A stretch of DNA of 24,000 nucleotides, from contig JAVHRS010000035.1 in assembly GCA_036171755.1 (NCBI GenBank), positions 2,882-26,881 on the forward strand, read 5' to 3'. Below, one piece after another: positions 1 through 19,738 of this stretch. The stretch's first letter is position 1. Each line of letters opens with the position of its first letter. The translations under genes were made by a program, and so were the position numbers. The notes under the pieces were generated by a model that worked only from the letters and a program-made list of their open reading frames with translations, did not search any database and was not told where the DNA came from. Source of the DNA: Minisyncoccota bacterium (GTDB taxonomy: Bacteria; Patescibacteriota; Minisyncoccia; Phycocordibacterales; UBA9973).

Positions 1-618
1 AATACCAAAATAAATATCATTTTTGGCGTCCCCATTTTTATACCACCACTTCACATTGTTATTTTTTTCAAGATTATTCTCTATAAACCCAATTTCAGTT
101 TCCCATTTATCTACAACATAGACTGGGTTCATAACACACCTTTTGTACTTCTTTTCTTCTGCATTCTTAGGATAATAATCTTCTTTTGATACATTCCACT
201 TAAGATTTTCCTCATAATCCTTTTCAGTTTTTAATCTGCTCTTAGAATATTTTTCTACAGAGCTTTGTATAACTTTAGCAAAGAATGACTGATTTTCTAG
301 TATTATTTTTTGTATATCAATTTTATCTTTGTCATCTTCTTCAAATCCTAAATACTTATTAAATGTTTGATATATCGCTGTAAGTATTGGGCTTATTGAT
401 CTTGCTCTTTGAAAAGGAGAAGTGTAACTTCCTAAGAAATCTTCCACCTTTGTTTTTATTTCATCTAATTCTTTATATCCAAAAACTGTTGTAAGGAGAT
501 TGTTTATCATTAAACGAGTGGCTGATTCATCTAGTTCGGAATATTGTTTACGTAAATATTGTTTGCCGTATGTTTTTAATTTCTTAGCAAACTCTTTTAT
601 TTGATTTTGTGTAGCCAT
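1..618 (-). CDS. Hypothetical protein, first 206 codons (runs off the window); restriction-endonuclease-like signatures
   Basis: Not in the supplied track because it is truncated. I translated the reverse strand and it is open for all 206 codons from the ATG at 618-616: MATQNQIKEFAKKLKTYGKQYLRKQYSELDESATRLMINNLLTTVFGY...YVVDKWETEIGFIENNLEKNNNVKWWYKNGDAKNDIYFGI. The ELDESATR..L and D-x-E...VKWWxKN stretches recall HsdR-N / Res-type PD-(D/E)XK modules. This is from memory and unverified. Confidence 0.6.
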   Translation of the reverse strand, partial: MATQNQIKEFAKKLKTYGKQYLRKQYSELDESATRLMINNLLTTVFGYKELDEIKTKVEDFLGSYTSPFQRARSISPILTAIYQTFNKYLGFEEDDKDKIDIQKIILENQSFFAKVIQSSVEKYSKSRLKTEKDYEENLKWNVSKEDYYPKNAEEKKYKRCVMNPVYVVDKWETEIGFIENNLEKNNNVKWWYKNGDAKNDIYFGI

Positions 619-975: not shown

Positions 976-1062
976 AAGCACTAGTAAACGATACCCGACC
1001 TCTATCTAACACATGGAACTTGGGTGTCGGGACCCAGTTCTTTAAATCTAAAAAATAAGACA

Positions 1063-1980
1063 ATGACAACAGAAAAGTTGATCACGTCTGCTCAAACAGA
1101 CAAAGTCGCAGATCTTGGCAGAGAAGCTGTAAAGACTGCAGTTGGTAAAGTAAATCCAACAAGTACCAATGTTCAAACTGGGATCATCAGCAATGGTCGT
1201 GAGTTCAAAAACAGAGTTGAAGAAGCTGTAAAAGCTATCATTCTGGAAATGATTACACCCAACCAGTACGCCAATGAGGTGGTAAGCTCAAGCTATGCCT
1301 ACCCGAAGGAATACAAGATGAAACCGATCGAAGAACAGGTAAGATTCATTGCCGAAAAGTTCGGACTTGATCCGACACAAGCATTGGAATTTATCAAAAT
1401 GTTACCCGCATTACCTGAAGGTGCCGAAGGATGGTTCGCCATTCCAAAAGTATTATCAGTTGCAAAAAAACATTTTTCTGCGATTACCAATTCTGCCGAA
1501 CAGTATTGTGAAGCCGTGAAATTAGTTCACAGCAAACTTGCTGAAAGCCGTAGCTTCTACAATTACCGTGAAGGTCAGATTACCACCGCACAGATTCGCC
1601 AACATCCCCGTACCATCAGTTTCCTCGAACAATTGGAATCTGAACAACAGGGTGACATTCTGATTCTCGCCGTTCAATACGGAATGAGACATCGTGGCAA
1701 ATCAGTTCGCCGTGCAAGAGAAACGTTCTCAGGTAATGAATTCGGACTTGGAGCATTCGCTCTTGGCTATATGGCATTGGTTCACCCCGATCGTTATGTT
1801 CGTTGGGAAGAACTTGATACCGATTGTGCAGGTGACGAATTTGCTCCTGGTGCTGATGGCGTGTTCTCGAAGGCTCCGATCTTCTACTTCAGCGATGTCG
1901 AGCTTGAGTTCGACACGGTCGATGTGTCCCGTGCCCGCGGTAGCTATGGTTCTGCCTCGGCGTTCGTTCCGCAGAATTGA
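1063..1980 (+). CDS. DGR target (variable) protein, family not recognised
   Basis: Long ORF. The track starts it at GTG 1024; I prefer the first ATG at 1063 (MTTEKL...), though neither start has a clear RBS. The C-terminal ~46 codons are the VR. I see no signal peptide, TM segment or known VR scaffold motif. The gene is visibly more GC-rich than the flanking DNA. Confidence 0.85.
   Translation: MTTEKLITSAQTDKVADLGREAVKTAVGKVNPTSTNVQTGIISNGREFKNRVEEAVKAIILEMITPNQYANEVVSSSYAYPKEYKMKPIEEQVRFIAEKFGLDPTQALEFIKMLPALPEGAEGWFAIPKVLSVAKKHFSAITNSAEQYCEAVKLVHSKLAESRSFYNYREGQITTAQIRQHPRTISFLEQLESEQQGDILILAVQYGMRHRGKSVRRARETFSGNEFGLGAFALGYMALVHPDRYVRWEELDTDCAGDEFAPGADGVFSKAPIFYFSDVELEFDTVDVSRARGSYGSASAFVPQN
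1840..1977 (+). repeat. DGR variable region (VR)
   Basis: VR 1844-1974 aligns base for base with TR 2349-2479 (offset 505). There are 15 mismatches, and every one falls at a TR adenine: TR 2355, 2390, 2397, 2403, 2405, 2411, 2423, 2424, 2435, 2436, 2441, 2442, 2445, 2448 and 2477. TR AAAA at 2345-2348 versus VR TTTG would add four more if the repeat starts there. Confidence 0.95.
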
Positions 1981-2482: not shown

Positions 2483-2493
2483 CCAATATACAC

Positions 2494-2521: not shown

Positions 2522-2525
2522 GCTT

Positions 2526-2873
2526 TTATCGTTCAACCGAACGAATCCATCCACCAAGCATTCTACCGATCTCGTCGGTAATATTTTGAAGCAGAGTGTA
2601 CTTCTTTACATCAAGCGTTTTACTTTCTTTCATTAGTCGAACAAAGAAACGAAAAATGTTTAATTTTACACTGGCTTTTTCAAGTAAAAGTAATTTGCGT
2701 TCTTTTGAAGAATAACTTGCTTCTAAGACATATTCGAGAATATCAATCATTACATTTTCAGATCGTTCATAGATTGAAAATCTTTCATGTTTTGGGACTA
2801 ATGTTCTGTATTCATGAAATGTTTTATATAACTCGTGAATTTTTCTTAGAATTGGCACATCATTTTCATTCAT
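2526..2873 (-). CDS. avd: DGR accessory variability determinant (Avd), four-helix-bundle type
   Basis: 115 aa. ...LNIFRFFVRLMKESK...ITDEIGRMLGGWIRSVER closely parallels the Bordetella phage bAvd C-terminus as I recall it (LRFWLRFL...EVGRILGSWIARV). It sits immediately beside a DGR RT but on the opposite strand. Confidence 0.85.
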   Translation of the reverse strand: MNENDVPILRKIHELYKTFHEYRTLVPKHERFSIYERSENVMIDILEYVLEASYSSKERKLLLLEKASVKLNIFRFFVRLMKESKTLDVKKYTLLQNITDEIGRMLGGWIRSVER

Positions 2874-3929
2874 ATGCGTGTATTTATCAATTTATTTAAT
2901 TCATTAATTCAGCCAGAACACCTATTTTATTCATGGGAGGAATTTAAACGTGACAAAGGTTTAAAGGAAGATATTCTCTTATTTGAGAAAAATCTTGAAA
3001 GTGAAATATTTAAGCTTCACCGAGAACTAAAAGGAGAAGTGTATAAACATAGCGGATATGAAAGTTTCTTTATTTCAGATCCGAAACGAAGACATATCCA
3101 TAAAGCAACAGTTAGAGACCGTGTAGTACATCATGCAATTATGCATACATTGTATCCTCTTTACGACAAAACATTTATTGATAATTCATTTTCTTGTCGT
3201 GTTGGTAAAGGGACCCATAAAGGTGTTCTTGCCCTTAGATCTATGATTGCCAAGGCGAGTAAAAATAATACTCAAACTGTTTACATTCTCAAGTGTGATG
3301 TTGAGAAATTTTTTGATTCAGTTCATCATATTATTTTAATTGATATACTTAGAAAAAGAATTAGGGACAAAAAACTCATGGATTTACTGATAGAAGTAAT
3401 TGAGAGTTTTATAAGTGATCGTTCTACTTTATTTGATCGTGTAGGTTTACCAATTGGAAATCTTACATCTCAACTTTTTGCAAACATATACATGGATAAA
3501 TTTGACCAATATATGAAGCATGAATTGAAAGTAAAATACTATGCTCGTTACACAGATGACTTTGTTATTGTGAGTAAAAATAAAGAATACTTGTCTAACC
3601 TTAAATTAGATATTTCTAAATTCCTTAGTGAGTCACTAAGACTTACTATTCACCCAAAGAAAATTACCATTCGTAAGTATACTCATGGTATTGATTTTCT
3701 AGGACATGTTTCTTTTCCACATCATGTATTGATAAGAAAAAGAACCTTAGAAAGAGCTACAAGAAGAATTAATGAGAAGATTGTTTTGTATAAAGCAGGA
3801 TCTCTTGAGAAAGAGAAACTTGAAGCCACTTTATACTCATATCTTGGAGTCCTTTCTCATGCCAATGCTTATAGATTTTCTGAGAAACTGAAGAATGACT
3901 ATTTTCTTTCGGTTAATAATCCTAATTAA
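2874..3929 (+). CDS. DGR-type reverse transcriptase
   Basis: 351 aa. Contains IGNLTSQLFANIYM (the DGR-diagnostic [LIV]GxxxSQ motif), the catalytic box YTDDFVIV, DFLGH, and N-terminal DPKRRHIHKATVRDRVVHHA. Adjacent to a TR/VR pair and avd. Confidence 0.95.
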   Translation: MRVFINLFNSLIQPEHLFYSWEEFKRDKGLKEDILLFEKNLESEIFKLHRELKGEVYKHSGYESFFISDPKRRHIHKATVRDRVVHHAIMHTLYPLYDKTFIDNSFSCRVGKGTHKGVLALRSMIAKASKNNTQTVYILKCDVEKFFDSVHHIILIDILRKRIRDKKLMDLLIEVIESFISDRSTLFDRVGLPIGNLTSQLFANIYMDKFDQYMKHELKVKYYARYTDDFVIVSKNKEYLSNLKLDISKFLSESLRLTIHPKKITIRKYTHGIDFLGHVSFPHHVLIRKRTLERATRRINEKIVLYKAGSLEKEKLEATLYSYLGVLSHANAYRFSEKLKNDYFLSVNNPN

Positions 3930-3981
3930 AAAAATTCGACTAGGTTTTATAATCAGCTAATTTGATTAAAGCTTTACAGAA

Positions 3982-5073: not shown

Positions 5074-5087
5074 AATTTGTAAATTAC

Positions 5088-5456
5088 TTAAGAAATGATA
5101 TTAATTAAAATAATTAGTCCTATAAAAATGGCTATAGCAATAAGAATCATTTTTCTCTGTTTGATATTTTTTACTTCTGCCTTTTTGTCCTCTGAAACAG
5201 CTTTTTCTATTTCTTCTTTAGACATAACCTCGCTTATTATCTTTTGTGCTCTTGGGGAGTCCATAGGTATTAGACTTGGACTTTTGCACTTAGGACATAT
5301 TTTATGTCTTGATGAGGAACGCCAAATTGAATAGATTAGCCCTGGGATAATAAAACAAAGCCAAAGGATTACTTCTATACAACCATTCCCTCCAATCGCA
5401 CCCTTTGGTTCACCGACATAATTACATTGAGTACAAACTAATATTTTTGATGACAT
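5088..5456 (-). CDS. Small membrane zinc-ribbon protein (LITAF-like arrangement)
   Basis: CTQC, then a hydrophobic stretch VILWLCFIIPGLIYSIW, then HKICPKC. This split zinc ribbon around a membrane-inserted segment resembles LITAF/SIMPLE domains. There is a second TM at the C-terminus. Confidence 0.6.
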   Translation of the reverse strand: MSSKILVCTQCNYVGEPKGAIGGNGCIEVILWLCFIIPGLIYSIWRSSSRHKICPKCKSPSLIPMDSPRAQKIISEVMSKEEIEKAVSEDKKAEVKNIKQRKMILIAIAIFIGLIILINIIS

Positions 5457-5480
5457 ATTTAAAAAATTAATTAATAATAT

Positions 5481-6194
5481 TTATTCATATAAAACAGTTA
5501 AAATGCCAGTACCAGAGAAATCACCTTGGTTTGGGGTATGGATTGTTATTACAGATTTTCCATATTTGTAATCTATGTTAGGATTAACATTTATTTTTTC
5601 CTCTGGAATTCGTATCTTTGGATAAATACCGCCAAAAATAATTTGGTCTGAGTTGAAATGCTGAGTGTAAACAAGTTTATCATTCTTTGACATTGAATTA
5701 CTGCCAGCGTATAACTTCACATCAGCTGTAATTAACATTTTTTCTGTTGCGTCACTAGTTATAATATCTCCATTTTTATCTAAATAAACTACTTCAAGAA
5801 CAGGTCCATCATTCTCGACATCAGCATCCCAATTATCTTGTAGTCCTCCACTAACTCGTATGGCAGATAGTCCATCTATCTGTAAAGTTTTATTAGATGA
5901 TATTGGTGTTGTTGGGACAACTTGAGTATTTGCGACCACTGGTACAGTTTTTGGAGTGGTAACTATTTTATTTTGAACCACTGTATCTTTTTGTATTACG
6001 TTAGTTTCTGCTACCGCAACAGGACTACTTACTGTTGATTCGACAATTGGAATCTCATCTTGTATTGGAATTTGAGCAATAGGTTCTTTTTTGTTTGAGA
6101 ATTTAGAACCAACAAATAGACCAATAACAAGTATTGCAACTATAACAACGATCTTACCTGTCATAGTTTCCATAAATTGTTTTACATCTTTCAT
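5481..6194 (-). CDS. Signal-anchored secreted/surface protein, unknown function
   Basis: 237 aa with an N-terminal hydrophobic anchor IVVIVAILVIGLFVG. The rest is not recognised. It is the first gene after leader RNA copy B and is tightly packed with the two downstream genes. Confidence 0.7.
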   Translation of the reverse strand: MKDVKQFMETMTGKIVVIVAILVIGLFVGSKFSNKKEPIAQIPIQDEIPIVESTVSSPVAVAETNVIQKDTVVQNKIVTTPKTVPVVANTQVVPTTPISSNKTLQIDGLSAIRVSGGLQDNWDADVENDGPVLEVVYLDKNGDIITSDATEKMLITADVKLYAGSNSMSKNDKLVYTQHFNSDQIIFGGIYPKIRIPEEKINVNPNIDYKYGKSVITIHTPNQGDFSGTGILTVLYE

Positions 6195-6403
6195 ATTAGA
6201 TTTACTTTTGCGTTTTTAGTGATAAAACCTAGTGATAAGACACAAAAAGCCCACCACATAGGTAGAGACCGAAGTCTCTCATATCAGTTTCCCGATACGG
6301 CATATCACGCGACCCCATATGATGGGTTCTTTATGCGTGATATGACTAACTTTCACCATGCCTTTATTTCTAAAGGTTTAGGCTACTTAAACTATTAACT
6401 TGT
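6195..6403 (-). ncRNA. Structured ~200-nt 5' leader RNA, copy B
   Basis: 6202-6397 is the second copy of 627-820. Helix changes relative to copy A are compensated: CAUAUCACGC/GCGUGAUAUG, GAGAC-UUCG-GUCUC and AUCGG-GAAA-CUGAU. It starts ~7 nt downstream of a perfect minus-strand TATAAT (6415-6410) and ends at the ATG at 6194. Confidence 0.8.
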
Positions 6404-6409
6404 AAAGAA

Positions 6410-6415
6410 ATTATA
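6410..6415 (-). promoter_or_regulatory. -10 box (TATAAT) driving leader copy B and the nuclease operon
   Basis: Perfect TATAAT on the minus strand, placed just before the point where similarity between the two leader copies begins. The -35 is weak or unclear. Confidence 0.45.
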
Positions 6416-6519
6416 CCTTATTTTTTAAGGTTGCACCATATTAGCTCACATTTAAATATTTGTGTAGTCGAGTTATCAACTAGAAGAAATAAGACTATAA
6501 AAATAGTGCAGTATTTACA

Positions 6520-7110
6520 CTATTTATTTTTAATTTTATCCAAAATATCTGCATAAATATTTAATGGATTAGATAATATTTTATCACTTTTTGTTGAAAT
6601 AATTTTATAAAACTTTTCATAAAACCAGAGTTGATCTTCCTTTGAGGAATTAAATTTATCCCAAATTGAATTATTGGTGGCCATCTCATCTAAAATTGTT
6701 TTTAAATTATGTATCTTATCACAAAGAGAAACAGTAGTTGCCTCAAGTGAAGCATTTTCTAGATGCTTTAAATATTTTTCTTTTCTTATTTTCCATGTTT
6801 CTTTATCATTACTTTCCATCTCAGGATCTTTATCTTCTGATACTTCTTTTATTATTTGTAAAACTTTTTCACCAAAAGTATTTTGGATAGAATTCTCCTT
6901 CTCAGACATTAAAACTTTTACATCTTCCAAAACATCATGCAACAAACAGGCAATAAAAATATCTTCATCATCAGTAAATTGACTAGCAATATACATAACC
7001 GAAAAAGGGTGAGAAATATATGGAATCTTTTCCTCACCTTTTCGAAAATAACCATCATGGAATTTTGCAGCAATTTGAATTGCTGTATTCAACCTAGAAC
7101 TAAAATTCAT
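6520..7110 (-). CDS. HD-domain phosphohydrolase, RelA/SpoT-type (p)ppGpp-hydrolase-like (small alarmone hydrolase-like)
   Basis: AIQIAAKFHDGYFRKGEEKIPYISHPFSV...ACLLHDVLEDV matches the SpoT/Mesh1 HD hydrolase pattern (H..Q.RK...PY..HP ... LLHDvvED). The protein is 196 aa and single-domain. Confidence 0.8.
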   Translation of the reverse strand: MNFSSRLNTAIQIAAKFHDGYFRKGEEKIPYISHPFSVMYIASQFTDDEDIFIACLLHDVLEDVKVLMSEKENSIQNTFGEKVLQIIKEVSEDKDPEMESNDKETWKIRKEKYLKHLENASLEATTVSLCDKIHNLKTILDEMATNNSIWDKFNSSKEDQLWFYEKFYKIISTKSDKILSNPLNIYADILDKIKNK

Positions 7111-7115
7111 ATAAT

Positions 7116-7367
7116 TTATTGATTGAGTGTATGTCCTAAGTATTCAAAACGATCAATCATTTTTCCATCTTTCTCAACTTTCTCAAAAAACATATCTAGT
7201 GGGCGTGCTGAAACCATAGAGCCTTTTCGATCCTTTAAATCACCATTAAGAGGAATATAAACAACGAGTCTCTCTTCTGTTTCTGTATGACGAGCAATAG
7301 CAAGAACTTGTACAAGAAGCCCCTTAAAGTGTTTATAAATACCAAGTTTAACATCTAAATTATTCAT
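7116..7367 (-). CDS. DUF1653 family protein
   Basis: LGIYKHFKGLLVQVLAIARHTETEERLVVY...ARPLDMFFEKVEKDGKMIDRFEYLG matches the DUF1653 pattern as I remember it (YRHYKG.LY.V...A.HSETEE.LVVY...RPL.MF...V...G..V.RFEY.G). Confidence 0.8.
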   Translation of the reverse strand: MNNLDVKLGIYKHFKGLLVQVLAIARHTETEERLVVYIPLNGDLKDRKGSMVSARPLDMFFEKVEKDGKMIDRFEYLGHTLNQ

Positions 7368-7398
7368 AAGTTTAAATTATTTTTATCTAATAATACTA

Positions 7399-7426
7399 TT
7401 GATTATACCAAAATATATAGTATAAT
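7399..7426 (+). promoter_or_regulatory. Promoter of the Csx3-like fusion gene (near-leaderless mRNA)
   Basis: TTGATT (7399-7404), a 16-nt spacer, then TATAAT (7421-7426). The ATG at 7435 is only 8 nt past the -10 box, so the transcript would have almost no leader. Confidence 0.55.
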
Positions 7427-7434
7427 CAATATAT

Positions 7435-8667
7435 ATGAAAGAGGGTCAAGAAAGTTTTATACATAAAGATAATAAAATTGAACAAAAGAACTTTTTTGAA
7501 AAAGGTCTTAAAATTGTTGTTGGTGGACCGCCACATTCAGGTAAATCTGTATTTCTTGATGGATTATTAAAAAATCTTCCATATAATACTCACTATTTTA
7601 GTGGATGCCCTGATGGCGAAGGCCCATGGCTCCAAAGACACTATACTGAAGATGAGGTAAAAGCATTACGTCGTAAAGGTTCGTTTACGGAAGAGTTTGT
7701 AAATTTTGCACATGATGCAGTCAAAGACTTTGATGGTCAACTTATGCTTATTGATATTGGTGGTCGAATTACTCCAGAAAATATGAAAATTATTTCAGGG
7801 GCGACTCACGCAATTATTCTTTCTGGTGATACTAAAAATTTTGATGAATGGAATGATTTTTTTAAGAAGGAAGGTATAGAAATTATTGCAAAGCTTCATA
7901 GTGATTATGAGGGTAAAGAAGATACAATAACGGAAGATAATGAACAAATACAAGGTAGTGTTCATTATCTTGAAAGAGGACAACATCCAGAAGATAGAGA
8001 GAGTATAAAATTTGTTGCTGAACATATTACCGAACTTGTTAAAAAAAATGAAGAGAAAAAGAATATATCATTAGAGGATAATAATGAGCTTTTGAAAGTG
8101 GACTCATTAGTTTTTGAATATAATCTTAAGGCTAATTATGATAAAGAAACAGTTCCTGAGACATTAACTGGCTTACAAAAATATTTAAAAGATAATTATA
8201 GTGATTCTAAACAAATCAAGATCGATGGGCGTATAAATTCATATCTTGCTGGTTTTTTAGGAACTGAACTTGCAAATGGAGAACGAAAAATATCTTTCAA
8301 TAGTCCAAATGGTTTTGTTGGATTAAAGGAACTCAATCAATCCGAAAATGGAAATGTTATTGATTGGGAACAAAAAGAAAATATTACAAAACATGGAGAT
8401 TCTTTTCTTGAAATTAATTTTAAACTAGACCCATCAAAGCCTTTTAAACCAGAAGATTTAGATGAAATGAATATCCCTAAGATTAGCACGGGTAAAATTG
8501 TATCTATTGGCGGTAAGGGTCCACATTGGCTTAGAACGTCTATTGCAATAGGATATAAAAAGGATGCACAAGTTATTGCTATGTTCATTCCAGGAGAAGG
8601 ATCTATTGTTGTACATTCAAAAGATATAGAAAAATATCCCCTTGGAACATTACTTGAAAATAAATAA
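7435..8667 (+). CDS. P-loop NTPase fused to tandem Csx3-like (Crn3 ring-nuclease-like) domains
   Basis: The N-terminus has a Walker A motif, VVGGPPHSGKS. The C-terminus KIVSIGGKGPHWLRTSIAIGYKKDAQVIAMFIPGEGSIVVHS parallels A. fulgidus Csx3 as I recall it (GVVISGRGPIWLHCFLAHKY...VAVYDPRLGAVVVQS). A degenerate copy lies upstream (IKIDGRINSYLAGFLGTEL...ISFNSPNGFVGL). Not verified by search. Confidence 0.65.
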   Translation: MKEGQESFIHKDNKIEQKNFFEKGLKIVVGGPPHSGKSVFLDGLLKNLPYNTHYFSGCPDGEGPWLQRHYTEDEVKALRRKGSFTEEFVNFAHDAVKDFDGQLMLIDIGGRITPENMKIISGATHAIILSGDTKNFDEWNDFFKKEGIEIIAKLHSDYEGKEDTITEDNEQIQGSVHYLERGQHPEDRESIKFVAEHITELVKKNEEKKNISLEDNNELLKVDSLVFEYNLKANYDKETVPETLTGLQKYLKDNYSDSKQIKIDGRINSYLAGFLGTELANGERKISFNSPNGFVGLKELNQSENGNVIDWEQKENITKHGDSFLEINFKLDPSKPFKPEDLDEMNIPKISTGKIVSIGGKGPHWLRTSIAIGYKKDAQVIAMFIPGEGSIVVHSKDIEKYPLGTLLENK

Positions 8668-8691
8668 CCTCATAGATAAATCTATGAGGTT
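8666..8691. terminator. Bidirectional terminator between convergent genes
   Basis: 11-bp perfect stem AACCUCAUAGA / UCUAUGAGGUU with a UAAA loop and A/T-rich flanks. It overlaps the stop codon of 7435..8667. Confidence 0.75.
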
Positions 8692-8713
8692 ATTTATTTA
8701 GGAAACATTCAAA

Positions 8714-9616
8714 CTAATTTAGCTTTTCCTCAATCATCTTGAACTCTGGAGTATTACCAAATTCAGATCGTATTTTTTCTAAAAGATTTTTGATCATCTC
8801 TTTATCCATTTTAATCATTCCAGATTCTTCAAGATTCTTACCTTCCTGTCGAAGTGATTGAAGCCCAATTACTTCAGCTAATTCGAATTGTCTTGTTTCT
8901 GGATTAGAAGCTAAACGAATCATATTAGGCCATTGTCCACTAATACCATAGATTGCTGTTGTTTGAAGTGTTCCTAATGCCCCCAAACCAGCAGGAGCGT
9001 AAGCAACCTTACCTGATTCCCAGTCACCAACAGTCATACCGGCTTTTTGAGACGCTTCAACAAGAGCGGAAATAATTTTATTTTTCCCATCACCAGAAAT
9101 TTCTTCCGTAGTAATTTTATTGTCCCCAAAAGGTACAAATACAAGATTTTCTACTGTTGTCCCCATTTCTTCAGCAAGTGCTAAATGTTGATCAGCTGAT
9201 ATAGGGTGTCCACCTTGTAAAACAAATGTTTTACCCGATGCACTTCCTTCAATTCTCTGTCCACGAGCATCACGAGAAGCTTCATGTCGCCATTCAGACA
9301 AATTGATTTCAACGGGTTCTGATCCTGGTACAACAAGAAGAGCTTTTTTAGGTAATCCTGCTATCATTTCAGTGAGAGCAAGAAATATTCCAGATGCATG
9401 AGCCTGCCCAGGCAAAGCTATCTTGTCTGCATTTTTAATCTTACTAAGATTTGCAGAAACATATTCTTTTACTTGATCAATTAGATGCTTATCTTTTTCA
9501 AGATTAAGATTCAATACTTCTGTCTTTATATTTTCTCCAGTAATTGTAGGTACTGTTGAAAATGTGGATTCTGGTTGCTTTTCAGCAGAATTTACACGTT
9601 CAAATTTTGGTTCCAT
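8714..9616 (-). CDS. Unknown two-domain protein, paralog of 9718..10548
   Basis: 300 aa. It is collinear with the upstream gene product: EINLSEWRHEASRDAR versus ELNLHDFRHNQARPKR; TTVENLVFVPF versus GTETLVFANL; YAPAGLGALGTLQTTAIYGISGQWP versus MITAGLSPVNAILVTALHALCESWC; FELAEVIGL versus FHFTDLIQL. It has its own TGn-TATAAT -10 box on the minus strand (9653-9648). Confidence 0.75.
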   Translation of the reverse strand: MEPKFERVNSAEKQPESTFSTVPTITGENIKTEVLNLNLEKDKHLIDQVKEYVSANLSKIKNADKIALPGQAHASGIFLALTEMIAGLPKKALLVVPGSEPVEINLSEWRHEASRDARGQRIEGSASGKTFVLQGGHPISADQHLALAEEMGTTVENLVFVPFGDNKITTEEISGDGKNKIISALVEASQKAGMTVGDWESGKVAYAPAGLGALGTLQTTAIYGISGQWPNMIRLASNPETRQFELAEVIGLQSLRQEGKNLEESGMIKMDKEMIKNLLEKIRSEFGNTPEFKMIEEKLN

Positions 9617-9673
9617 ATATTTTATAAAGTTAATTACTAATAATTTGATTATAACATTTTTTTACAATAAAAA

Positions 9674-9700
9674 AGAGCGATTCCAATGTGGAACCGCTCT
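9674..9700 (-). terminator. Rho-independent terminator after 9718..10548
   Basis: On the minus strand: AGAGCGGUUCCA-CAU-UGGAAUCGCUCU followed by UUUUUUAUUG. Confidence 0.75.
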
Positions 9701-9717
9701 TTGCCAGTATGTTTAGA

Positions 9718-10548
9718 TTACCGGTTAATTTTTCTCAATTCATCCCCGAGTAACGTTCCTTCGGGATGTTCATTGAGCAATTGCTCAAAAACATCTTTAG
9801 GAACAAGAACGGGAGCACTCCCAGCGTTTGCAGTTCTGCCAAGGGCTTCCATTTTTCCCAACTGTATTAAGTCAGTGAAATGGAAAGTTCCTTCTTTGTT
9901 TTCTGCAACTGGCTGAGAACACCAGCTTTCACAAAGAGCATGTAGAGCAGTTACCAAAATTGCATTTACTGGGGAAAGTCCCGCAGTAATCATGATAACT
10001 CTGCGACTGGCAATTGAGTTACTAACTCCAGCACTTGAAAGTGCATTTGTTAACTCTTCAAGAAGCCATTCCGCTAAACCATTTTGACCTAAGTCAATCT
10101 GGCCAAGCTGAAGGTTAGCAAATACCAGTGTTTCAGTCCCAGCCAACTCAGAGAGCTCGGCTTTTTGGTGTTCAGGTACTTCACGTCCTGAAGCATTCAC
10201 AATAATCACTGCATCCTGGGACAAATTGTCCTCAGTTGCAAGGAATGTTGCACGCTTCGGCCTTGCTTGATTGTGACGGAAATCATGGAGATTTAACTCT
10301 CCCTTATTAATTCCATCAGGTCCAATCAAAGCAATCGTGGGAAATGTATTATTCTTTCCACGCAAGAATGCGCAGATTGAACTTCCAACTCCTGGTATCG
10401 GATGAAGCACTACTACCTCTTCTGTAGAGGCATTGACTCCAGAAATTTGAGCTTTAATCTGCTCTGCAATTGGAGTTCCGGGAACAATACTGAATGCGTA
10501 ATTCTTTTCACCTTGTACGCGAGGGTTTGTTGAAAATAAAGTTTTCAT
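9718..10548 (-). CDS. Unknown two-domain (Rossmann-like?) protein, paralog of 8714..9616
   Basis: 276 aa and relatively GC-rich. Strand-loop-helix elements VVVLHPIPGVGSSICAFL and RVIMITAGLSPVNAILVTALHAL suggest nucleotide- or ligand-binding folds. No family recognised with confidence. Confidence 0.75.
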   Translation of the reverse strand: MKTLFSTNPRVQGEKNYAFSIVPGTPIAEQIKAQISGVNASTEEVVVLHPIPGVGSSICAFLRGKNNTFPTIALIGPDGINKGELNLHDFRHNQARPKRATFLATEDNLSQDAVIIVNASGREVPEHQKAELSELAGTETLVFANLQLGQIDLGQNGLAEWLLEELTNALSSAGVSNSIASRRVIMITAGLSPVNAILVTALHALCESWCSQPVAENKEGTFHFTDLIQLGKMEALGRTANAGSAPVLVPKDVFEQLLNEHPEGTLLGDELRKINR

Positions 10549-10584
10549 TTTTTTATTTTTTAAATTAAAATTATTTATTATTCA

Positions 10585-10642
10585 CTCTTGAAATGAATAT
10601 TATAAGTACTTATTTAAATACCCATAATACTCATTTCAAGAG
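10585..10642 (-). promoter_or_regulatory. 19-bp hairpin in the 5' UTR of 9718..10548
   Basis: Arm 10585-10603 (ctcttgaaatgaatattat) pairs with 10624-10642 (ataatactcatttcaagag). The single imperfect position (10597/10630) is A.C on the plus strand but a G.U wobble on the minus strand. The loop is 20 nt. Confidence 0.6.
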
Positions 10643-10730
10643 AATTGAATAAAATTTCAACAAACCTAATTGAGATATTTATTAAAGAACAATTTTATAA
10701 GGCTGAATTTTCTCCTAACCCTACTTGCCT

Positions 10731-10759
10731 ATGATAGCATATTTATACTTCTTTGTCAA
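10731..10759 (-). promoter_or_regulatory. Candidate promoter for 9718..10548
   Basis: On the minus strand: TTGACA (10759-10754), a 17-nt spacer, then TATCAT (10736-10731). It lies downstream of the hammerhead and upstream of the 19-bp hairpin. Confidence 0.45.
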
Positions 10760-10801
10760 GTATTATATTGACATAAAATATAAATAATGTTAAAAAACAA
10801 T

Positions 10802-10854
10802 TCTATTTTCGTCCTTTTGGACTCATCAGTCAGGGCACACACCCTGAGAATAAA
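10802..10854 (-). ncRNA. Type III hammerhead self-cleaving ribozyme
   Basis: Minus-strand RNA: UUUAUUC^UCAGGG-UGUGUG-CCCUGA-CUGAUGA-GUCC-AAAA-GGAC-GAA-AAUAGA. The core is complete: C3-A9 CUGAUGA, the G10.1/C11.1 pair, G12A13A14, the A15.1-U16.1 pair and C17. Stems I (6 bp) and II (4 bp) are closed hairpins. Stem III is open: 6 bp, AAUAGA/UUUAUU, including one G.U. The predicted cleavage is after C17, between plus positions 10848 and 10847. Confidence 0.85.
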
Positions 10855-10899
10855 GGGTTCAGGAATATGTCCATCCCCCTTATTTTAATTAAAGAACAA

Positions 10900-11784
10900 T
10901 TACAGTCTCCTCAACACGGCCTCATCAAATACATTTATAGCATCAGAGCTTACTACGTTAGCAAGTTTAAAAACTTGTTGTACTAAATCTGTAGCTTCTG
11001 TTTTTGAGAGTTTAGGTTGTAGGTTCTGATTGATAGATTCTTGTAAATACCACTGTCTAGGTGATAATAACTTGAACCCAGCATCACTAACTTTTTCTCT
11101 CCATCCATCTTCTGGAAGAATTTCTTCATCTTCATGACCTTCATAAAAAGGTTTAGAGGATTCAGGCATCCACGAAGACATGTTTTGCGAACAGTATCGA
11201 AAACCTTTTACATCAAAATAATCATATCCGAGTTTTTTAATTTCTGTTAAAAAACTCAAGTCTGATACTCCTGAAATATAAGGATGTGCAATTGGCAAAC
11301 ACGATACACCGAACTCTTTTGCAAGAGCTAATGTATGCAAATGTTTTTGAAGAGAAACTTTTTCAATACTCCAATTTCCAGTTATACCTAGTATAAGATA
11401 AAAATTTGGATATTGTGCTAATTTTTGCATAACTTCACGACTAATTGGCCATTTTGTTACGCAAGTTGTAAGTTTTGCAACACTACTTGCTTTTTCCATC
11501 CATTCCCATAGGTATTTTTCAATTTTCGGGAAGAACGGATCAGTAATTGCAGTAAATCCTACAAAGTCACCTTTTAGAATTTTCCAAGGAAATTCTTTAA
11601 AGCGTTTTTGTTCATCCGAATCAGTATCAATCCATGGTGTGACATTCACAAAGCTACATGCTTTATTTATCCCCATTAATGGATTTTGATTCCAAATTTC
11701 TCTACGTACTTCATGCTCTGTGATGAAGCAGTATTTACAGGCAACTGGACATGCCGGCTCACCTGAAACGAATTTTTGTTTCAT
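10900..11784 (-). CDS. Radical SAM enzyme (SplB-like/'DNA repair photolyase'-type barrel)
   Basis: Contains CPVACKYCF (CxxxCxxC), followed by GFTAITDPFFPKIE and CVTKWP, which resemble the COG1533-type tDPYqP.E / TK pattern. I prefer the ATG at 11784 (MKQKFVSGEPACPVACKYC). The track start at 11859 would overlap the upstream gene by ~100 nt. Confidence 0.8.
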   Translation of the reverse strand: MKQKFVSGEPACPVACKYCFITEHEVRREIWNQNPLMGINKACSFVNVTPWIDTDSDEQKRFKEFPWKILKGDFVGFTAITDPFFPKIEKYLWEWMEKASSVAKLTTCVTKWPISREVMQKLAQYPNFYLILGITGNWSIEKVSLQKHLHTLALAKEFGVSCLPIAHPYISGVSDLSFLTEIKKLGYDYFDVKGFRYCSQNMSSWMPESSKPFYEGHEDEEILPEDGWREKVSDAGFKLLSPRQWYLQESINQNLQPKLSKTEATDLVQQVFKLANVVSSDAINVFDEAVLRRL

Positions 11785-12340
11785 TATCAATTTTTGGTTT
11801 TTGTATCTCACATATACCAATGATTTCATCGAGCACCTTATTGGGTGATTGATCTGCATTAATTACATGTAAGAGATTTTTTGAAGAATAAAATTCAAGT
11901 AGCTGTGGTATCCTACCTAGTTCAATAAGTAAGCGTTCGTTCATTTTTTCAAGTGAATCATCTTTTCTGTTTCTGTCTAAGGCACGTTTTATACATAACT
12001 CATCACTGAGTTCAAAATATATAACATGTGTAGGTTTAATAGAAAATAATTCAGCTTGATGTACATTTCGTGGAAATCCATCAACAACCCATGAATCTAA
12101 ATCCTGAAGTTTTGATTGTGCAATTTGCACAGTTAGTTCGTCAGGAAGTGGTTTCCATGTTTTTTGATTAAAGTGGTCTCGAATAGATTGATGCAAGGAG
12201 TGCTCAAGGTTAGATGCTATTTCGCGTGATACATCACCAATAGAAATATGTGGTATTTTGTATTTTTGCGAAAGCATCTCACCTTGAGTTCCTTTACCTG
12301 TACCTGGTTTACCTAACAATACGATTTTCATATCTTTCAT
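11759..12340 (-). CDS. Adenylate-kinase-like nucleoside monophosphate kinase (short, no zinc lid)
   Basis: IVLLGKPGTGKGTQGEMLSQKYKIPHISIGD and VVDGFPRN match the Adk P-loop and NMP-binding signatures (GxPGxGKGTQ, DGFPR). Its 3' end overlaps the radical SAM start, suggesting translational coupling. Confidence 0.8.
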   Translation of the reverse strand: MKDMKIVLLGKPGTGKGTQGEMLSQKYKIPHISIGDVSREIASNLEHSLHQSIRDHFNQKTWKPLPDELTVQIAQSKLQDLDSWVVDGFPRNVHQAELFSIKPTHVIYFELSDELCIKRALDRNRKDDSLEKMNERLLIELGRIPQLLEFYSSKNLLHVINADQSPNKVLDEIIGICEIQKPKIDNETKIRFR

Positions 12341-12352
12341 TGTATTTTAAGA

Positions 12353-13582
12353 TTAAGAATTCGTAAAGAGGTTATTATAGGTAAAACTTTTTTTGCAAAC
12401 TTTAGTCTTTCTATCCTCTGGAAGCTCAATCATCTCAAGTAACCTAGAAGGATTAAAACCGAAGCTTTTTTGTTCATGAATATAATATTTCTCAATACAA
12501 TATTTGCAATCGAAACATTTCTTCATTGCAGTAGCTATTGGCCACCATGAGTTCAAACAAGTGATTTCAGGAACTTTTGGGAAATTAGGAAAATTAACTT
12601 CTCCAACATCCTTCATTCCCTTATCTCTACAACCATCTTGCTGGCATATCATACCAGTAAGAAACCTCATAAAAGTGAGATCTCCTAAACGAATTTTACC
12701 TCTAACTTCTATATGAGGATTTTCGTTTAAAAAGAAACACGTCGTGCAACATGATATACATTTAAGGCGATTACTTGCCTCAACATCACATTTCTGTTGC
12801 ACTTCATTCCCAGCAACAAACTTTACGTCGTAGCCAAGTTCTTTTAAAAACTCGATACTACCTTCACGAGGTTCAGATAGTCCTTGACAAGTCGTAAGAA
12901 GTGGACAACTTACCTCACTACATTTCACTAATTTTGGTGAATTGTAATAAGGGTTATATGTCCACTTATGCCCAAGCAAGAAGTCCACAGCACAGCTTGT
13001 CCTTGTGAACAACTGCACTCCAAACTCTTTACTTGCTGCTAAAGTATCAGACCAGATTTCGGGTGTAATTTGCTTTACCCGCAGGACCCATTCGGTCACT
13101 TCTGCGGGTTGCATTTCGTTAACAAGCATCTCATCCCCACGAAATCCAGCCACTACTGCCGCTCGACAATTGACTTCACTAAGACGACGGAAGATATAAT
13201 TAATTGTCTCCCGATTAGTATTGTACGGCGGAGTCAATGGTCTTATATACCCAATAGCAGGAACCCCTACCTCATTTAAGAGGCGGATATTCTCGTATCG
13301 GTGCTCATGTCCTACATTTTCCATACTTCTAAGTTCAGAGATGGAAACGAGGACCACGATGTTCAAGCCTTTGTCCTTACGAAGACGAAGATCAGCGACC
13401 TTACCCTCGCAAAGACGACCCTTCAAAATCAAACCTACTGGACCCTCATGATGAGTCTCCAATAGATCATCCAGTTTTGTGAGCGTATCCGACCACTGAA
13501 GAGTCGGGTCCCCATAAAAGTTATTTATAGAGACAGGAATCTGTCGAAGCAAACTCTTATACATTTCTGTTTTTTCTTTCAT
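12353..13582 (-). CDS. Radical-SAM-like barrel paralog lacking the N-terminal CxxxCxxC, with a Cys-rich C-terminal extension
   Basis: The N-terminal half parallels the neighbouring radical SAM protein: VSINNFYGDPTLQW versus GFTAITDPFFPK, and VVAGFRG versus DVKGFRY. No Cys triad precedes it. The C-terminal half carries CSEVSCPLLTTC, CDVEASNRLKCISCCTTCF, CQQDGC and CFDCKYCI. Confidence 0.7.
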   Translation of the reverse strand: MKEKTEMYKSLLRQIPVSINNFYGDPTLQWSDTLTKLDDLLETHHEGPVGLILKGRLCEGKVADLRLRKDKGLNIVVLVSISELRSMENVGHEHRYENIRLLNEVGVPAIGYIRPLTPPYNTNRETINYIFRRLSEVNCRAAVVAGFRGDEMLVNEMQPAEVTEWVLRVKQITPEIWSDTLAASKEFGVQLFTRTSCAVDFLLGHKWTYNPYYNSPKLVKCSEVSCPLLTTCQGLSEPREGSIEFLKELGYDVKFVAGNEVQQKCDVEASNRLKCISCCTTCFFLNENPHIEVRGKIRLGDLTFMRFLTGMICQQDGCRDKGMKDVGEVNFPNFPKVPEITCLNSWWPIATAMKKCFDCKYCIEKYYIHEQKSFGFNPSRLLEMIELPEDRKTKVCKKSFTYNNLFTNS

Positions 13583-13673
13583 TTTTTTATTTATTTTAGT
13601 TTACAAGAGTGATGATAATATCACCACCCCAAAAACTAAAATAAATTCTGAAAGAAAAGTTCCTATCTTTCTA

Positions 13674-15527: not shown

Positions 15528-16856
15528 ATGAAAATAGATAACCCAAATCAAGAGAAAGGTGTCGAGAAAATTAAGGTCGAACCAAAGAAGATTAGATACT
15601 GCCTTTATGCAAGAAAATCAACAGAATCAGAGGAAAGACAAGTCCTTTCCATAGACAGTCAAATCAGCGAGATGCTCCAATTAGCCGATCGTGAGGGGCT
15701 TGAGGTGGTCACCATGAAGCGTGAAAGCCATAGTGCTAAAGAGACTGGACAAAGACCTGTTTTTAACGAAATAATCGAAGAACTCAAACAAGAGAAGTTT
15801 AATGCCATACTCACATGGGCACCTGACCGTATTTCAAGAAATGCGGGAGATTTAGGAAAGATTGTAGATTTAATGGATGCAGGAAAATTGCATATGATAC
15901 GAACCTTCGGACAAACGTTTGGGAATAATCCAAATGAGAAATTTCTTCTAATGATTCTTGGCTCGCAAGCAAAACTAGAAAATGATAACCGAGGTATCAA
16001 CGTTAAGCGTGGATTGCGAACGAGAGTAGAGATGGGATTATGGCCTGGGATGGCACCATTGGGATATTTAAATCAAAAATTAATGGATAGGAAGTGTCAG
16101 ATAGTAATTGATCCAGATAGAGCACCGATCATAAAGAAAATGTTTGAGAAAGTAGTATATGAACATTGGAGTGGCAGAAAAGTATACAACTGGTTACGAT
16201 TTGATTTAAATTTCTATACTCGAGGAAACAAACCCCTGACACTCTCAGGGGTTTATCGTATCTTTAATATGCCAATCTATTATGGACCATTTGAATACCC
16301 TAGAAATTCTGATAACTGGTATCAAGGAAGTCATACACCAATAATTACTCAGGAATTATTTGAAAAAGCTCAAGCACAATTAAAAAGAGATAGAATTGTG
16401 AGAGAAAATAGAGAGTTCGCATTCACTAAATTATTTACATGTGGAATGTGTAGTTCAGGGATATCTGCTCAAGAGAAGTATAAAGAGCTTAAAGATGGAA
16501 CTACTGCTAAATATGTCTACTACTCCTGTTCAAAAGCAAGAGATAGAAATTGTAAAAATAAATATATCAGAGAAGAAGAATTGATAGATGAATTATTTAA
16601 AGTGATTGATAAGGTAAGTATTAATGAACTAGGAATGCGAATTAAACTTGAAGAAGAGATAAAGCGATTTAATCGACTTCAAAGATTAGCAACAAAAGGT
16701 ACACCGAAATACTCAACCAATGAGGATGATGTAAACACAAGAGAGTATGCTAAGTATGTACTTAGAGAAGGCACACCGCTCGAAAAAAGAGAATTGCTTG
16801 GACATTTAAGGAGTAGATTGGTGCTGAATGATAAGAAAATTACACTCGTAGAATAA
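15528..16856 (+). CDS. Large serine recombinase (phage-integrase/transposon type)
   Basis: The N-terminal resolvase catalytic region is RYCLYARKSTESEERQVLSIDSQ (Ser nucleophile context). A recombinase domain follows, then a Cys cluster CGMC...YYSC and a coiled-coil tail. 442 aa. Confidence 0.9.
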   Translation: MKIDNPNQEKGVEKIKVEPKKIRYCLYARKSTESEERQVLSIDSQISEMLQLADREGLEVVTMKRESHSAKETGQRPVFNEIIEELKQEKFNAILTWAPDRISRNAGDLGKIVDLMDAGKLHMIRTFGQTFGNNPNEKFLLMILGSQAKLENDNRGINVKRGLRTRVEMGLWPGMAPLGYLNQKLMDRKCQIVIDPDRAPIIKKMFEKVVYEHWSGRKVYNWLRFDLNFYTRGNKPLTLSGVYRIFNMPIYYGPFEYPRNSDNWYQGSHTPIITQELFEKAQAQLKRDRIVRENREFAFTKLFTCGMCSSGISAQEKYKELKDGTTAKYVYYSCSKARDRNCKNKYIREEELIDELFKVIDKVSINELGMRIKLEEEIKRFNRLQRLATKGTPKYSTNEDDVNTREYAKYVLREGTPLEKRELLGHLRSRLVLNDKKITLVE

Positions 16857-16891
16857 TAGAAAAAATTTATCAAAAATGGTAAAATCTTCTT

Positions 16892-18301: not shown

Positions 18302-19537
18302 ATGAATTATCTAAATGATATCATTAATAATATAGATAAACTTACAATAACGATTACAATAGCTGTTGCTGTTATCGGATGGATCTTTGCTCTTTTTCTG
18401 CAAGGAAGAAATATTAAACATCAGCAAAAAGCCACTATTCGTTATGATATTTATAATCAATTTGTTCAGCTTCATAAAAAAATTCAGGGTACTTTGTCTA
18501 CTCTAAATGCAAAATCATCTCCACCTTTCATTTTAATGAGCTCGAGCATGATTCCATTTGAACTTAAATTAAAAAAAGAATATAAGGGTAACTGGTTAGA
18601 ATATAGCGAAATGGAATGTTTATTAGACGGAGAGAAGAAATGGAACTCTTTTGTTCAAGAACTCATACAAGCAAATATAGATTTTAATAATAAGTATATT
18701 GATTTGTTATATTTATTTGGAGATTGGACAGCTGTATTAAAACCACTCTTGATCACTAAAGATATTTTTTCAAAAGAGATAGAAATAATAAAGGCTGAGA
18801 TTTCCGAAGATTTGAGTACATTACAAATGTATACTTCCAAGCAAGATCATGATTGGAGAACTTGGGACCAAGAACAAGTTAATAATATTGCACAACGTGT
18901 AGGAAAAAATGGTTTAAAAATTAGCATGTATATAGGAGATTTTATGACACTCATTCATAATAATCTTTTATCGAAATACTTTCGACAAAAAAGACCCATA
19001 CGAAAAACCCTCGACGCAGAATATAAAGTTTTAACAAAGGAAGGAATTGTAGAAAAAGTTGATTGGAAAAAAGTAAGAAAGATGGAATCATACAAAAAGG
19101 AACTTATAGAAATTGCTCAAAAACAAATCGAAGGGTCAGAAATTGTTTCTCAAGAATATAAAGATTTTCTTAATTCAATAGTAAATGAAATATGTCCTTC
19201 ATGTAAAAATCCATTATTAGTGATTAGTGCTGAGAACAATGAAAAGAATTTTAATTTTAAATATGCATGCGGACATGGATGGAAAGGATTTACATTGGAA
19301 GACAGTCTTACTATTAGGGAATTAATAAAAATGAAAGGAGCTCGTGAGGGTTTTGGTATGATTAGAAAAACAATACAAGGATGGAAACCTAGTGGGGATC
19401 CAAAATTAAAAAATGGGGTTGAATTTTATATGGATGTAAATGTAGAGAAAAATGAATATCATCAAGTAGTAAAAGATGATAAAACAAAAAAAGTTCTCCA
19501 TGAAGAACACGAACCTCTTACTGAACATAAAAAATAG
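18302..19537 (+). CDS. Hypothetical membrane-anchored protein with C-terminal zinc-ribbon-like motif
   Basis: 411 aa. One N-terminal TM (ITITIAVAVIGWIFALFL) and CPSCKNP...YACGHGW near the C-terminus. No family recognised. Confidence 0.65.
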   Translation: MNYLNDIINNIDKLTITITIAVAVIGWIFALFLQGRNIKHQQKATIRYDIYNQFVQLHKKIQGTLSTLNAKSSPPFILMSSSMIPFELKLKKEYKGNWLEYSEMECLLDGEKKWNSFVQELIQANIDFNNKYIDLLYLFGDWTAVLKPLLITKDIFSKEIEIIKAEISEDLSTLQMYTSKQDHDWRTWDQEQVNNIAQRVGKNGLKISMYIGDFMTLIHNNLLSKYFRQKRPIRKTLDAEYKVLTKEGIVEKVDWKKVRKMESYKKELIEIAQKQIEGSEIVSQEYKDFLNSIVNEICPSCKNPLLVISAENNEKNFNFKYACGHGWKGFTLEDSLTIRELIKMKGAREGFGMIRKTIQGWKPSGDPKLKNGVEFYMDVNVEKNEYHQVVKDDKTKKVLHEEHEPLTEHKK

Positions 19538-19573: not shown

Positions 19574-19651
19574 TTTTTTGTAACTTGTAGCTTTGTGGGT
19601 CACAGCTCAACGTCGAGCATGTAGGTCCTCAAAACTAACAGGTTGTCCCTG

Positions 19652-19738
19652 CGGAAGGGGGGAGATTCGAACTCCCGAGGAGCTTTCACCCCTGACAGTT
19701 TTCAAGACTGTTCCATTAGACCACTCTGGCACCCTTCC
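19652..19738 (-). tRNA. tRNA-Ser (anticodon UGA), type II with long variable arm
   Basis: Minus-strand cloverleaf: acceptor GGAAGGG/CCCUUCC plus discriminator G; anticodon arm ACAGU-CUUGAAA-ACUGU; variable stem GGGG/CUCC; T arm GGGAG-UUCGAAU-CUCCC. No CCA is encoded. Confidence 0.9.

Follow-up and report, generated by a model that had tools for sequence, protein, structure and literature searches.

We analysed a 24,000-nt stretch of DNA from a Minisyncoccota bacterium (contig JAVHRS010000035.1, positions 2,882 to 26,881 of the forward strand; hereafter the window) around a gene for a 410-aa protein in which an N-terminal P-loop NTPase domain is followed by a middle domain and by a C-terminal Csx3 domain (Table 1). 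The initial annotation of this DNA had presented the gene as an orphan. That description does not survive: the gene is flanked by two genes of the Csx15 family and by one for a SpoT-type HD hydrolase. Nor is its architecture an unrecognised oddity, as the product matches the catalogued AAA-Csx3 (C3a67) family over its full length. The gene is a member of a known, functionally unexplored family, and occurs here as a CRISPR-detached, island-borne variant with distinctive partners.

Table 1. Coordinates of the AAA-Csx3 gene, its domains and associated features in the window (nt positions; aa, amino acids)
Feature	Position	Strand	Basis
AAA-Csx3 (C3a67-family) gene, 410 aa	7435..8667	+	Open reading frame; PADLOC PDLC01059; AlphaFold2 model
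P-loop NTPase domain, aa 22-198	7498..8028	+	PADLOC PDLC01045/PDLC01515; invariant columns
Walker A motif GGPPHSGKS; DIGG motif	7522-7548; 7753-7764	+	Within P-loop domain
Middle domain, aa ~215-320, probably a degenerate Csx3-like repeat	8077..8394	+	hhalign; profile vs. PDB
Canonical Csx3 (CARF7-like) domain, aa 324-403	8404..8643	+	Pfam, PDB, Foldseek, residue mapping
Csx15-family protein, 300 aa, convergent with AAA-Csx3, gap 46 bp	8714..9616	-	NCBIfam NF040560; PDB 9teu
Divergent Csx15-like paralogue, 276 aa	9718..10548	-	NF040560 21 bits, below cutoff
Stand-alone SpoT/RelA-type HD hydrolase (HD_4), 196 aa	6520..7110	-	Pfam HD_4, TIGR00691
DUF1653 protein, 83 aa, between HD gene and divergent promoter region	7116..7367	-	Pfam PF07866, E = 4 × 10−21
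Divergent intergenic region, 67 bp, overlapping promoter-like sites	7368..7434	.	Consensus matches only
Large serine recombinase inside island	15528..16856	+	Pfam Resolvase, Recombinase, Zn_ribbon_recom
tRNA-Ser(tga), right-hand island boundary	19651..19738	-	ARAGORN; alignment to L097, L099, L100

The N-terminal Walker-A NTPase proposed by the initial annotation is clearly present. The Walker A motif (GGPPHSGKS, G30 to S38, of the general form GxxxxGK[ST]) is invariant in a family alignment of 28 sequences, as is a Walker-B/DxGG motif at D107 to G110 (LMLIDIGG), which places the acidic residue after a hydrophobic strand as is usual in P-loop NTPases; PDGEGxW, RRKG and HxLERG are further conserved motifs of the domain. 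The domain matches the PADLOC models PDLC01045 (E = 7.6 × 10−54, the value also recorded for the PADLOC 'Csx3-AAA' model on this domain) and PDLC01515 (E = 1.3 × 10−47). The Pfam scan returned no AAA-type family for it at E ≤ 0.1, i.e., it lacks the match to AAA-type models by which AAA+ ATPases are recognised. An AlphaFold2 (AF2) model of the whole protein, built on the family alignment, had a mean predicted local distance difference test (pLDDT) score of 84.8 and a predicted template modelling (pTM) score of 0.82; the nearest structures to its P-loop domain in a Foldseek comparison were weak matches to SIMIBI GTPases and P-loop kinases, namely to SRP54/FtsY, adenylate kinase, MinD and HypB in the PDB (E ~4 × 10−3), and to adenosine 5'-phosphosulphate (APS) kinase and polynucleotide kinase in BFVD. 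Judged from its DxGG motif, which is GTPase/kinase-like, the domain is best assigned to the kinase/GTPase class, the label 'AAA' being historical.

The C-terminal Csx3 core, which the initial annotation had recognised, was confirmed by Pfam PF09620 (E = 3.5 × 10−9, 36.8 bits vs. a gathering score of 21), by sequence search against the PDB chains of Archaeoglobus fulgidus Csx3 (AfCsx3; E = 3 × 10−8), and by Foldseek comparison of the AF2 model to AfCsx3 (E ~1 × 10−5, target-normalised template modelling (TM) score 0.72-0.85). The profile searches agreed in part only: PF09620 is significant, whereas the TIGR02579 equivalog model scored 38.1 bits, below its cutoff of 55.4. A similar division applies to the degenerate second Csx3 copy said to precede this core, which is supported by sequence profiles but received no confirmation from structure comparison. 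Alignment of the middle and C-terminal profiles with hhalign gave a local E = 5 × 10−5 over 22 columns, pairing 'V-IDG..P.WL..AL' of the former with 'V-ISGRGPNWL.ASLA' of the latter. When the middle-domain profile alone was searched against 177,635 PDB sequences, AfCsx3 was the sole family matched (E = 0.05, 70 columns), and in the AF2 model both domains have their strands and helices in a parallel order. Duplication of Csx3 within one chain is, on the strength of these profiles, probable but not proven.

The ring nuclease Crn3 (Csx3) is a homodimer of ~100-aa subunits that cleaves cyclic tetra-adenylate (cA4) between stacked dimers with Mn2+; the active site of AfCsx3 comprises H57, H60 and H80 on one face and D69 and R71 on the other, H60A and D69A being inactive and R71A and H80A strongly impaired (PMC7371418). 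In the alignment to the window protein, H57/H60/D69/R71/H80 correspond to I372/K375/I385/G387/K396. A tally of family members from 27 loci in bacteria belonging to the candidate phyla radiation (CPR), 18 Clostridia loci and 20 Chloroflexota loci shows that the five nuclease positions are conserved in no clade, CRISPR-linked Chloroflexota members included, with D69 changed to Q and R71 to G or Q. Conserved across the tally are S44, G45, R/K46, P48, W50, Y59 and P70, which are ligand-loop or core positions, and the window protein retains the ligand loop G359-G-K-G-P-H-W-L. The off-switch role suggested earlier, in which the protein would degrade cA4, is unlikely because all five Crn3 ring-nuclease residues are replaced; with its ligand-binding loop retained, the protein is better explained as a sensor. 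We infer that Csx3 has the look of a binding or sensing module throughout the family.

The PADLOC model 'C3a67 AAA-Csx3' (PDLC01059, 382 profile positions) matches aa 27-407 of the window protein (E = 5.5 × 10−47), and the domain order is that of the family. The PADLOC models go back to the catalogue of Shah et al. 2018, in which cluster 67 has AAA followed by Csx3 (e.g., Caur_2269), whereas cluster 35, mainly from cyanobacteria, has Csx3 followed by AAA (e.g., CYB_0599 and Synechocystis Slr7080); what defined the family was its position next to type III CRISPR loci, and its ATPase was predicted to be allosterically controlled by a Csx3 domain that binds cyclic oligoadenylate (cOA) (PMC6546367). 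A neighbouring type III CRISPR-Cas interference module, as expected of the family, is absent from the 24-kb window. A 2025 survey still describes the domain fused to Csx3 as 'of unknown function', and among the papers listed in our literature searches none had either Csx3 or Cas10 together with a CPR term.

The window was scanned with Pfam and PADLOC over all open reading frames (ORFs) of at least 90 aa plus a partial ORF at the left edge, and an NCBIfam scan was also made. The earlier statement that no CRISPR-Cas or cyclase lies in the 24 kb stands for CRISPR arrays, core cas genes and cyclases, but it overlooked two CRISPR-associated genes of the Csx15 family: no CRISPR-like array was found in the window, and no core cas gene among its ORFs with Pfam, NCBIfam or PADLOC. 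A PADLOC match of the partial ORF 1..618 (-) to Cmr4 (15.8 bits, E = 0.003) was treated as chance, as neither Pfam nor the PDB supports it. Three ORFs considered as hidden cyclases (10900..11859, 12353..13582 and 18302..19537) have no cyclase match in Pfam, NCBIfam, PADLOC or PDB sequences.

The Csx15-family protein encoded convergently with AAA-Csx3 scores 50.5 bits with NF040560 (cutoff 35) and matches the Csx15 structure PDB 9teu over aa 135-260 (E = 3.5 × 10−8; 0.02 for CbCash), so that its Csx15 domain occupies these residues, the N-terminal ~125 aa being without assignment. The second, more divergent protein is 25% identical to the first (E = 2 × 10−6). The N-terminal half of these proteins was considered as a further Csx15 copy and rejected (hhalign E = 0.78 vs. 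the C-terminal half, using a 5-sequence profile). On the other side of AAA-Csx3, the HD protein matches Pfam HD_4 (E = 2.6 × 10−15, 56.9 bits vs. a gathering score of 27.2) and, over aa 10-139, TIGR00691 spoT_relA (E = 1.8 × 10−16); the motifs HDxxED (LLHDVLED) and DKIHN (CDKIHN) were read by eye from its translation. With a RelA/SpoT-type HD domain that carries HDxxED, it is a candidate small alarmone hydrolase (SAH). The intervening DUF1653 gene was not found beside AAA-Csx3 relatives. In the divergent intergenic region, TTGATT-16-TATAAT agrees with the promoter consensus at 10/12 positions on both strands (7399-7426 on the + strand and 7429-7402 on the - strand). A full-length LOOT RNA motif (Rfam RF03000, threshold 46.4 bits) at 6264-6384 (-) (73.6 bits) follows the HD_4 gene on its own strand, ~136 nt downstream; another is at 687-807 (-) (74.9 bits).

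A full scan of 1.84 billion representative proteins identified 1,208 relatives of the window protein at E ≤ 1 × 10−3, of which 370 had E ≤ 1 × 10−30; these include P-loop-only, tandem-Csx3-only, reversed-order and longer fused forms. In 185,579 genomes, sampled at one per species, we found 439 relatives with 26-42% identity over aa ~25-408, the best of them from Saccharibacteria (at most 42%). Genes within 5 kb of family members were clustered in 75 loci (our labels for compared loci begin with L), and the cluster representatives were annotated. Chloroflexota loci carry Cas10, Csx10, a divergent CARF-helix-turn-helix (HTH) gene and a CARF-nuclease within 5 kb, and are classical type III loci. 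Loci of gut Clostridia (within L037-L063) carry a LysR regulator, a conserved 160-aa protein without assignment and a 247-aa second Csx3-domain protein (e.g., L042:5137-5880 and L063:11513-12406), and no cas genes were noticed in them in a scan that was not exhaustive; L032, a Bacillota locus grouped with Clostridia, has a CRISPR-like array of 17 repeats.

In CPR bacteria the surroundings are of another kind. Saccharibacteria have an HD_4 gene immediately downstream of AAA-Csx3, with abutting or overlapping coordinates, in 9-10 loci, followed by a MYG1_exonuc-family gene; other Patescibacteria have a TrmB-type regulator, a DEAD/HA2 helicase and, once more, HD_4 beside the gene. Homologues of HD_4 also lie near AAA-Csx3 in L026, L038, L055 and L079, where L038 and L079 have the P-loop domain only. 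L038:6638-12472, from a Paceibacterota metagenome-assembled genome, is a split module with a TrmB-like regulator, a 187-aa P-loop-only ORF and an HD protein; its 101-aa Csx3-like ORF scores 20.8 bits with Pfam, just below the gathering score. The closest relatives, in L087-L089, are 61% identical in AAA-Csx3 and 64-65% identical in the convergent Csx15-like partner, which is also kept in L031. Both L088 (7159-12149) and L089 (4535-9525) have a set of five genes (TrmB, proteins of 222 aa and 142 aa without assignment, Csx15-like and AAA-Csx3) directly downstream of fusA, and on a further contig the set is directly upstream of tuf; it appears to be inserted between fusA and tuf of an otherwise standard rpsL-rpsG-fusA-tuf region. 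Longer AAA-Csx3 proteins of 660-760 aa (P0004, P0007, P0010, P0244 and L026:9704-11977) carry the motif HHFFADGCGKTAK in a C-terminal Fic-like domain, which is supported by repeated sub-threshold Pfam Fic matches (E = 0.002-0.014); in L087, the locus of the window gene's closest relative, this domain is a separate 246-aa gene (L087:929-1669). Another family member has an N-terminal HTH and a C-terminal NTP_transf_2 domain.

These neighbourhoods bear on the possibility, improbable in our judgement, that the window protein is an ordinary type III accessory factor, AAA-Csx3 and the Csx15-like proteins responding in trans to cA4 made by a Cas10 encoded elsewhere in the genome. Our view of this genome is limited to 24 kb, the Chloroflexota relatives do lie beside Cas10 in keeping with the definition of the family, and ring nucleases are sometimes found at loci that lack effectors, from which they may act in trans (PMC12409355). 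In a search for longer contigs of this organism, the longest had 13 kb and fell inside the window. However, none of the 34 CPR loci has an array within 10 kb, the families listed for 68 representatives, which stand for all ORFs of 380 aa or more in the same 10-kb range, include neither Cas10 nor a core cas model, and the CPR clade has conserved partners of its own in HD_4 and TrmB. Moreover, CPR bacteria are said, by Burstein and colleagues in 2016, to be largely devoid of CRISPR-Cas.

The nearest homologues of the window malic enzyme share 85-91% identity with it; the ones with organism names belong to Candidatus Nomurabacteria or Paceibacterota, and the genome is taken to be Nomurabacteria-like. 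In three related loci (L097, L099 and L100, with malic enzymes 88-91% identical), the alignment to the window starts exactly at 19650, at the 3' end of tRNA-Ser, and runs on through HIT, malic enzyme, S20 and RuvA; left of 19650 there is no match within ±10 kb of these loci. At least 19.6 kb (window positions 1-19650) behaves as a strain-specific island beside tRNA-Ser, with its left end outside the window, and is probably an integrated element or genomic island. It contains AAA-Csx3, both Csx15-like genes, the HD gene, a diversity-generating retroelement (DGR), a secreted-type nuclease, a radical-SAM/kinase/cysteine-desulfurase cluster and the serine recombinase, copies of which stand beside family members in Peregrinibacteria and Saccharibacteria loci (53% identical in L071 and 47% in L007). 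No att-like repeat of the 3' end of tRNA-Ser was found within the window. Rfam scores the same tRNA as tRNA-Sec (48.6 bits vs. a threshold of 47), probably on account of its long variable arm, whereas ARAGORN assigns it to tRNA-Ser with anticodon TGA.

An island next to a tRNA gene with a serine recombinase of its own is what might be expected of anti-defence cargo, and we considered an off-switch of this kind, in which tandem Csx3 and two Csx15-like proteins would soak up or slowly degrade the cA4 of a host type III system. The cA4 bound by Csx15 lies between stacked dimers, and the protein serves either as a sponge or as a ring nuclease of low speed; orphans make up ~25% of csx15 genes, and one of them, PfCsx15, is a cA4 sponge (PMC13148439); ring nucleases serve viruses and plasmids as anti-CRISPRs, and sponging requires no catalytic residues. 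We nevertheless give this explanation little credence. The P-loop domain is strictly conserved and, by its motifs, apparently active, and would have no role in sponging. Only 3 relatives were found in 2.9 million viral contigs, against the 439 in 185,579 genomes, and comparison to BFVD gave no Csx3-like viral structure, so that enrichment of AAA-Csx3 in phages was rejected; the same gene order recurs in many Saccharibacteria loci (HD_4, MYG1_exonuc and further shared neighbours). To our knowledge, type III systems are also rare in CPR hosts.

CPR bacteria depend on scavenged nucleotides, and this would suit a third explanation, which we think quite unlikely to account for the locus: a housekeeping function in RNA or oligonucleotide end-processing or nucleotide salvage, with a kinase-like P-loop domain guided by Csx3 and working with the HD phosphohydrolase and, in Saccharibacteria, the MYG1/DHH-type exonuclease. 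The position of HD_4 and MYG1_exonuc downstream of AAA-Csx3 in that phylum agrees with such a function, as do the weak structural neighbours of the P-loop domain, which include adenylate, APS and shikimate kinases and polynucleotide 5'-kinase/3'-phosphatase, and weak AAA_18 or KTI12 matches in some relatives. The White laboratory calls the cyanobacterial domain a 'kinase/transferase', and AfCsx3, which binds RNA, was first described as a deadenylase (PMC7371418). Yet the syntenic region lacks the gene in the relatives whose malic enzymes are 88-91% identical, the gene changes its place among unrelated sites, and its companions (regulators, recombinases and fusions to Fic-like or nucleotidyltransferase domains) are typical of conflict systems; other members of the family are embedded in type III CRISPR loci.

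We hold with moderate confidence that the locus encodes a ligand-gated P-loop sensor-effector with Csx15-like buffering and an HD reset, which would act as a conflict or stress switch apart from any neighbouring CRISPR locus. The tandem Csx3 module would form a single-chain pseudo-dimer that binds a small oligonucleotide signal but leaves it intact; our default guess for this signal, from the analogy to Csx3 and Csx15, is a cA4-like molecule. Binding, possibly through head-to-tail stacking of the Csx3/Csx15 type, would switch on the P-loop domain for NTP hydrolysis or phosphotransfer, and this ligand may be buffered, or removed at a slow rate, by the Csx15-like neighbours. The HD hydrolase could then reverse the nucleotide product or otherwise reset the response, as SAHs neutralise toxic small alarmone synthetases (toxSAS), to which they are type IV antitoxins (PMC7229694). 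It is from these putative sensor, effector, buffer and reset roles, together with the CRISPR-free context, that we read the module as a conflict or stress switch made of type III accessory parts.

Several observations weigh against this reading. None of the window ORFs came out in the Pfam, NCBIfam and PADLOC scans as a nucleotide cyclase that could be the source of the signal, and the cA4-contact residue R71 of AfCsx3 is glycine in the window protein, which makes cA4 binding itself uncertain. A Foldseek comparison of the isolated middle-domain AF2 model (pLDDT 75) gave nothing significant (all E ≥ 0.5), CARF-type proteins being frequent among its matches at E ~1 and none of them significant. 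Deletion of the Csx3-AAA gene slr7080 in Synechocystis left plasmid interference unaffected (PMC9676260), and we found no paper characterising the ligand, enzymatic activity or phenotype of AAA-Csx3. The HD gene of the window is on the strand opposite to AAA-Csx3, and shared inheritance among related Saccharibacteria, not function, could account for the linkage to HD. A broader claim, that CPR bacteria possess a mobile, Cas10-independent tandem-Csx3/P-loop/Csx15/HD signalling module, assembled from one-time type III accessory components, that works as a toxin-antitoxin-like defence or stress system, is in our view doubtful.

Comparison of the putative sensor-effector module to known systems shows which parts are shared. 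Among the AAA-Csx3 and Csx3-AAA families, C3a67 has the domain order and sequence family of the window protein; described members adjoin type III cas genes, whereas the window gene and the CPR members have no cas genes or arrays nearby, and the CPR clade pairs instead with SpoT-type HD and TrmB, some loci having Csx15-like or Fic-like partners as well. Crn3/Csx3 of A. fulgidus (AF1864; PDB 3WZI and 6YUD) has the same fold as the window C-terminal domain (target-normalised TM at most 0.85), and the two also agree in the glycine-rich ligand loop and at W50/Y59/P70; the window differs in that Csx3 is probably duplicated in one chain, is fused to a P-loop domain and has the five catalytic residues replaced. 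Csx15 is known from PfCsx15 and CliCsx15 (PMC13148439) and from the Csx15-Schlafen fusion 'Cash' (PMC13462974). The first window protein of this type has a Csx15 domain above the NCBIfam cutoff and keeps a GHP motif that we read as the equivalent of PfCsx15 H11, whereas the window has two paralogues, of 276-300 aa, which are double the usual length and whose N-terminal half is without assignment.

With the SAVED domains of effectors of the cyclic oligonucleotide-based antiphage signalling system (CBASS; e.g., Cap4), which are fused CARF-like pseudo-dimers, the window protein would share the concept of two sensor repeats in one chain that make up one ligand site and are fused to an effector. 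The repeats here are of the Csx3 type and not canonical CARF, and the Foldseek match to Cap4 (7yib) is weak (E = 4.6 × 10−4), its TM of ~0.25 and root mean square deviation of 18 Å showing no real structural equivalence. In toxSAS/SAH (HD_4) type IV antitoxin pairs (PMC7229694), where the product of the toxin is reversed by the hydrolase, a stand-alone SpoT-type HD protein has a nucleotide-using enzyme as its gene neighbour, as in the window; here this enzyme is a P-loop protein and not a RelA/SpoT synthetase, and the analogy is hypothetical. The Csx3 part of the whole family, being without ring-nuclease residues, is to be treated as a sensor and not as a Crn3 enzyme, and a large branch of the family belongs to CPR bacteria and Clostridia, its CPR members having no CRISPR-Cas found nearby. 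Their recurrent partners, namely SpoT-type HD and TrmB and, in some loci, Csx15-like or Fic-like proteins, offer concrete hypotheses on the output that can be tested. Should the CRISPR-independent reading be true, cOA-type sensing would have gained a second use outside CRISPR immunity, in organisms regarded as having few defence systems.

Other parts of the island carry further features. The DGR occupies 1024-3929, with bAvd at 2526..2873 (-), reverse transcriptase at 2874..3929 (+), and a 134-nt template repeat (2349-2482) that is 88% identical to a variable region (1844-1977) at the 3' end of the target ORF 1024..1980, where the local GC content is high (0.45); public contigs break at the DGR repeat. 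Upstream of the Csx15-like genes, a same-strand cluster (10900-15020 (-)) encodes a class-V aminotransferase/cysteine desulfurase (DndA/SspA-like in PADLOC), a Cys-rich 409-aa protein without assignment, an adenylate-kinase-like protein with a weak PADLOC match to 'pVip-kinase' (E = 2.8 × 10−6), and, in the 319-aa ORF 10900..11859, a radical-SAM-like CxxxCxxC motif (CPVACKYC); the cluster may be a nucleotide-modifying defence module. A 363-aa staphylococcal-nuclease-domain protein (3982-5073 (-)) matches PADLOC 'C3a212 SNc+LTD' (E = 5.7 × 10−44), another family from the type III accessory catalogue, and is more likely a secreted scavenging nuclease than a type III accessory.

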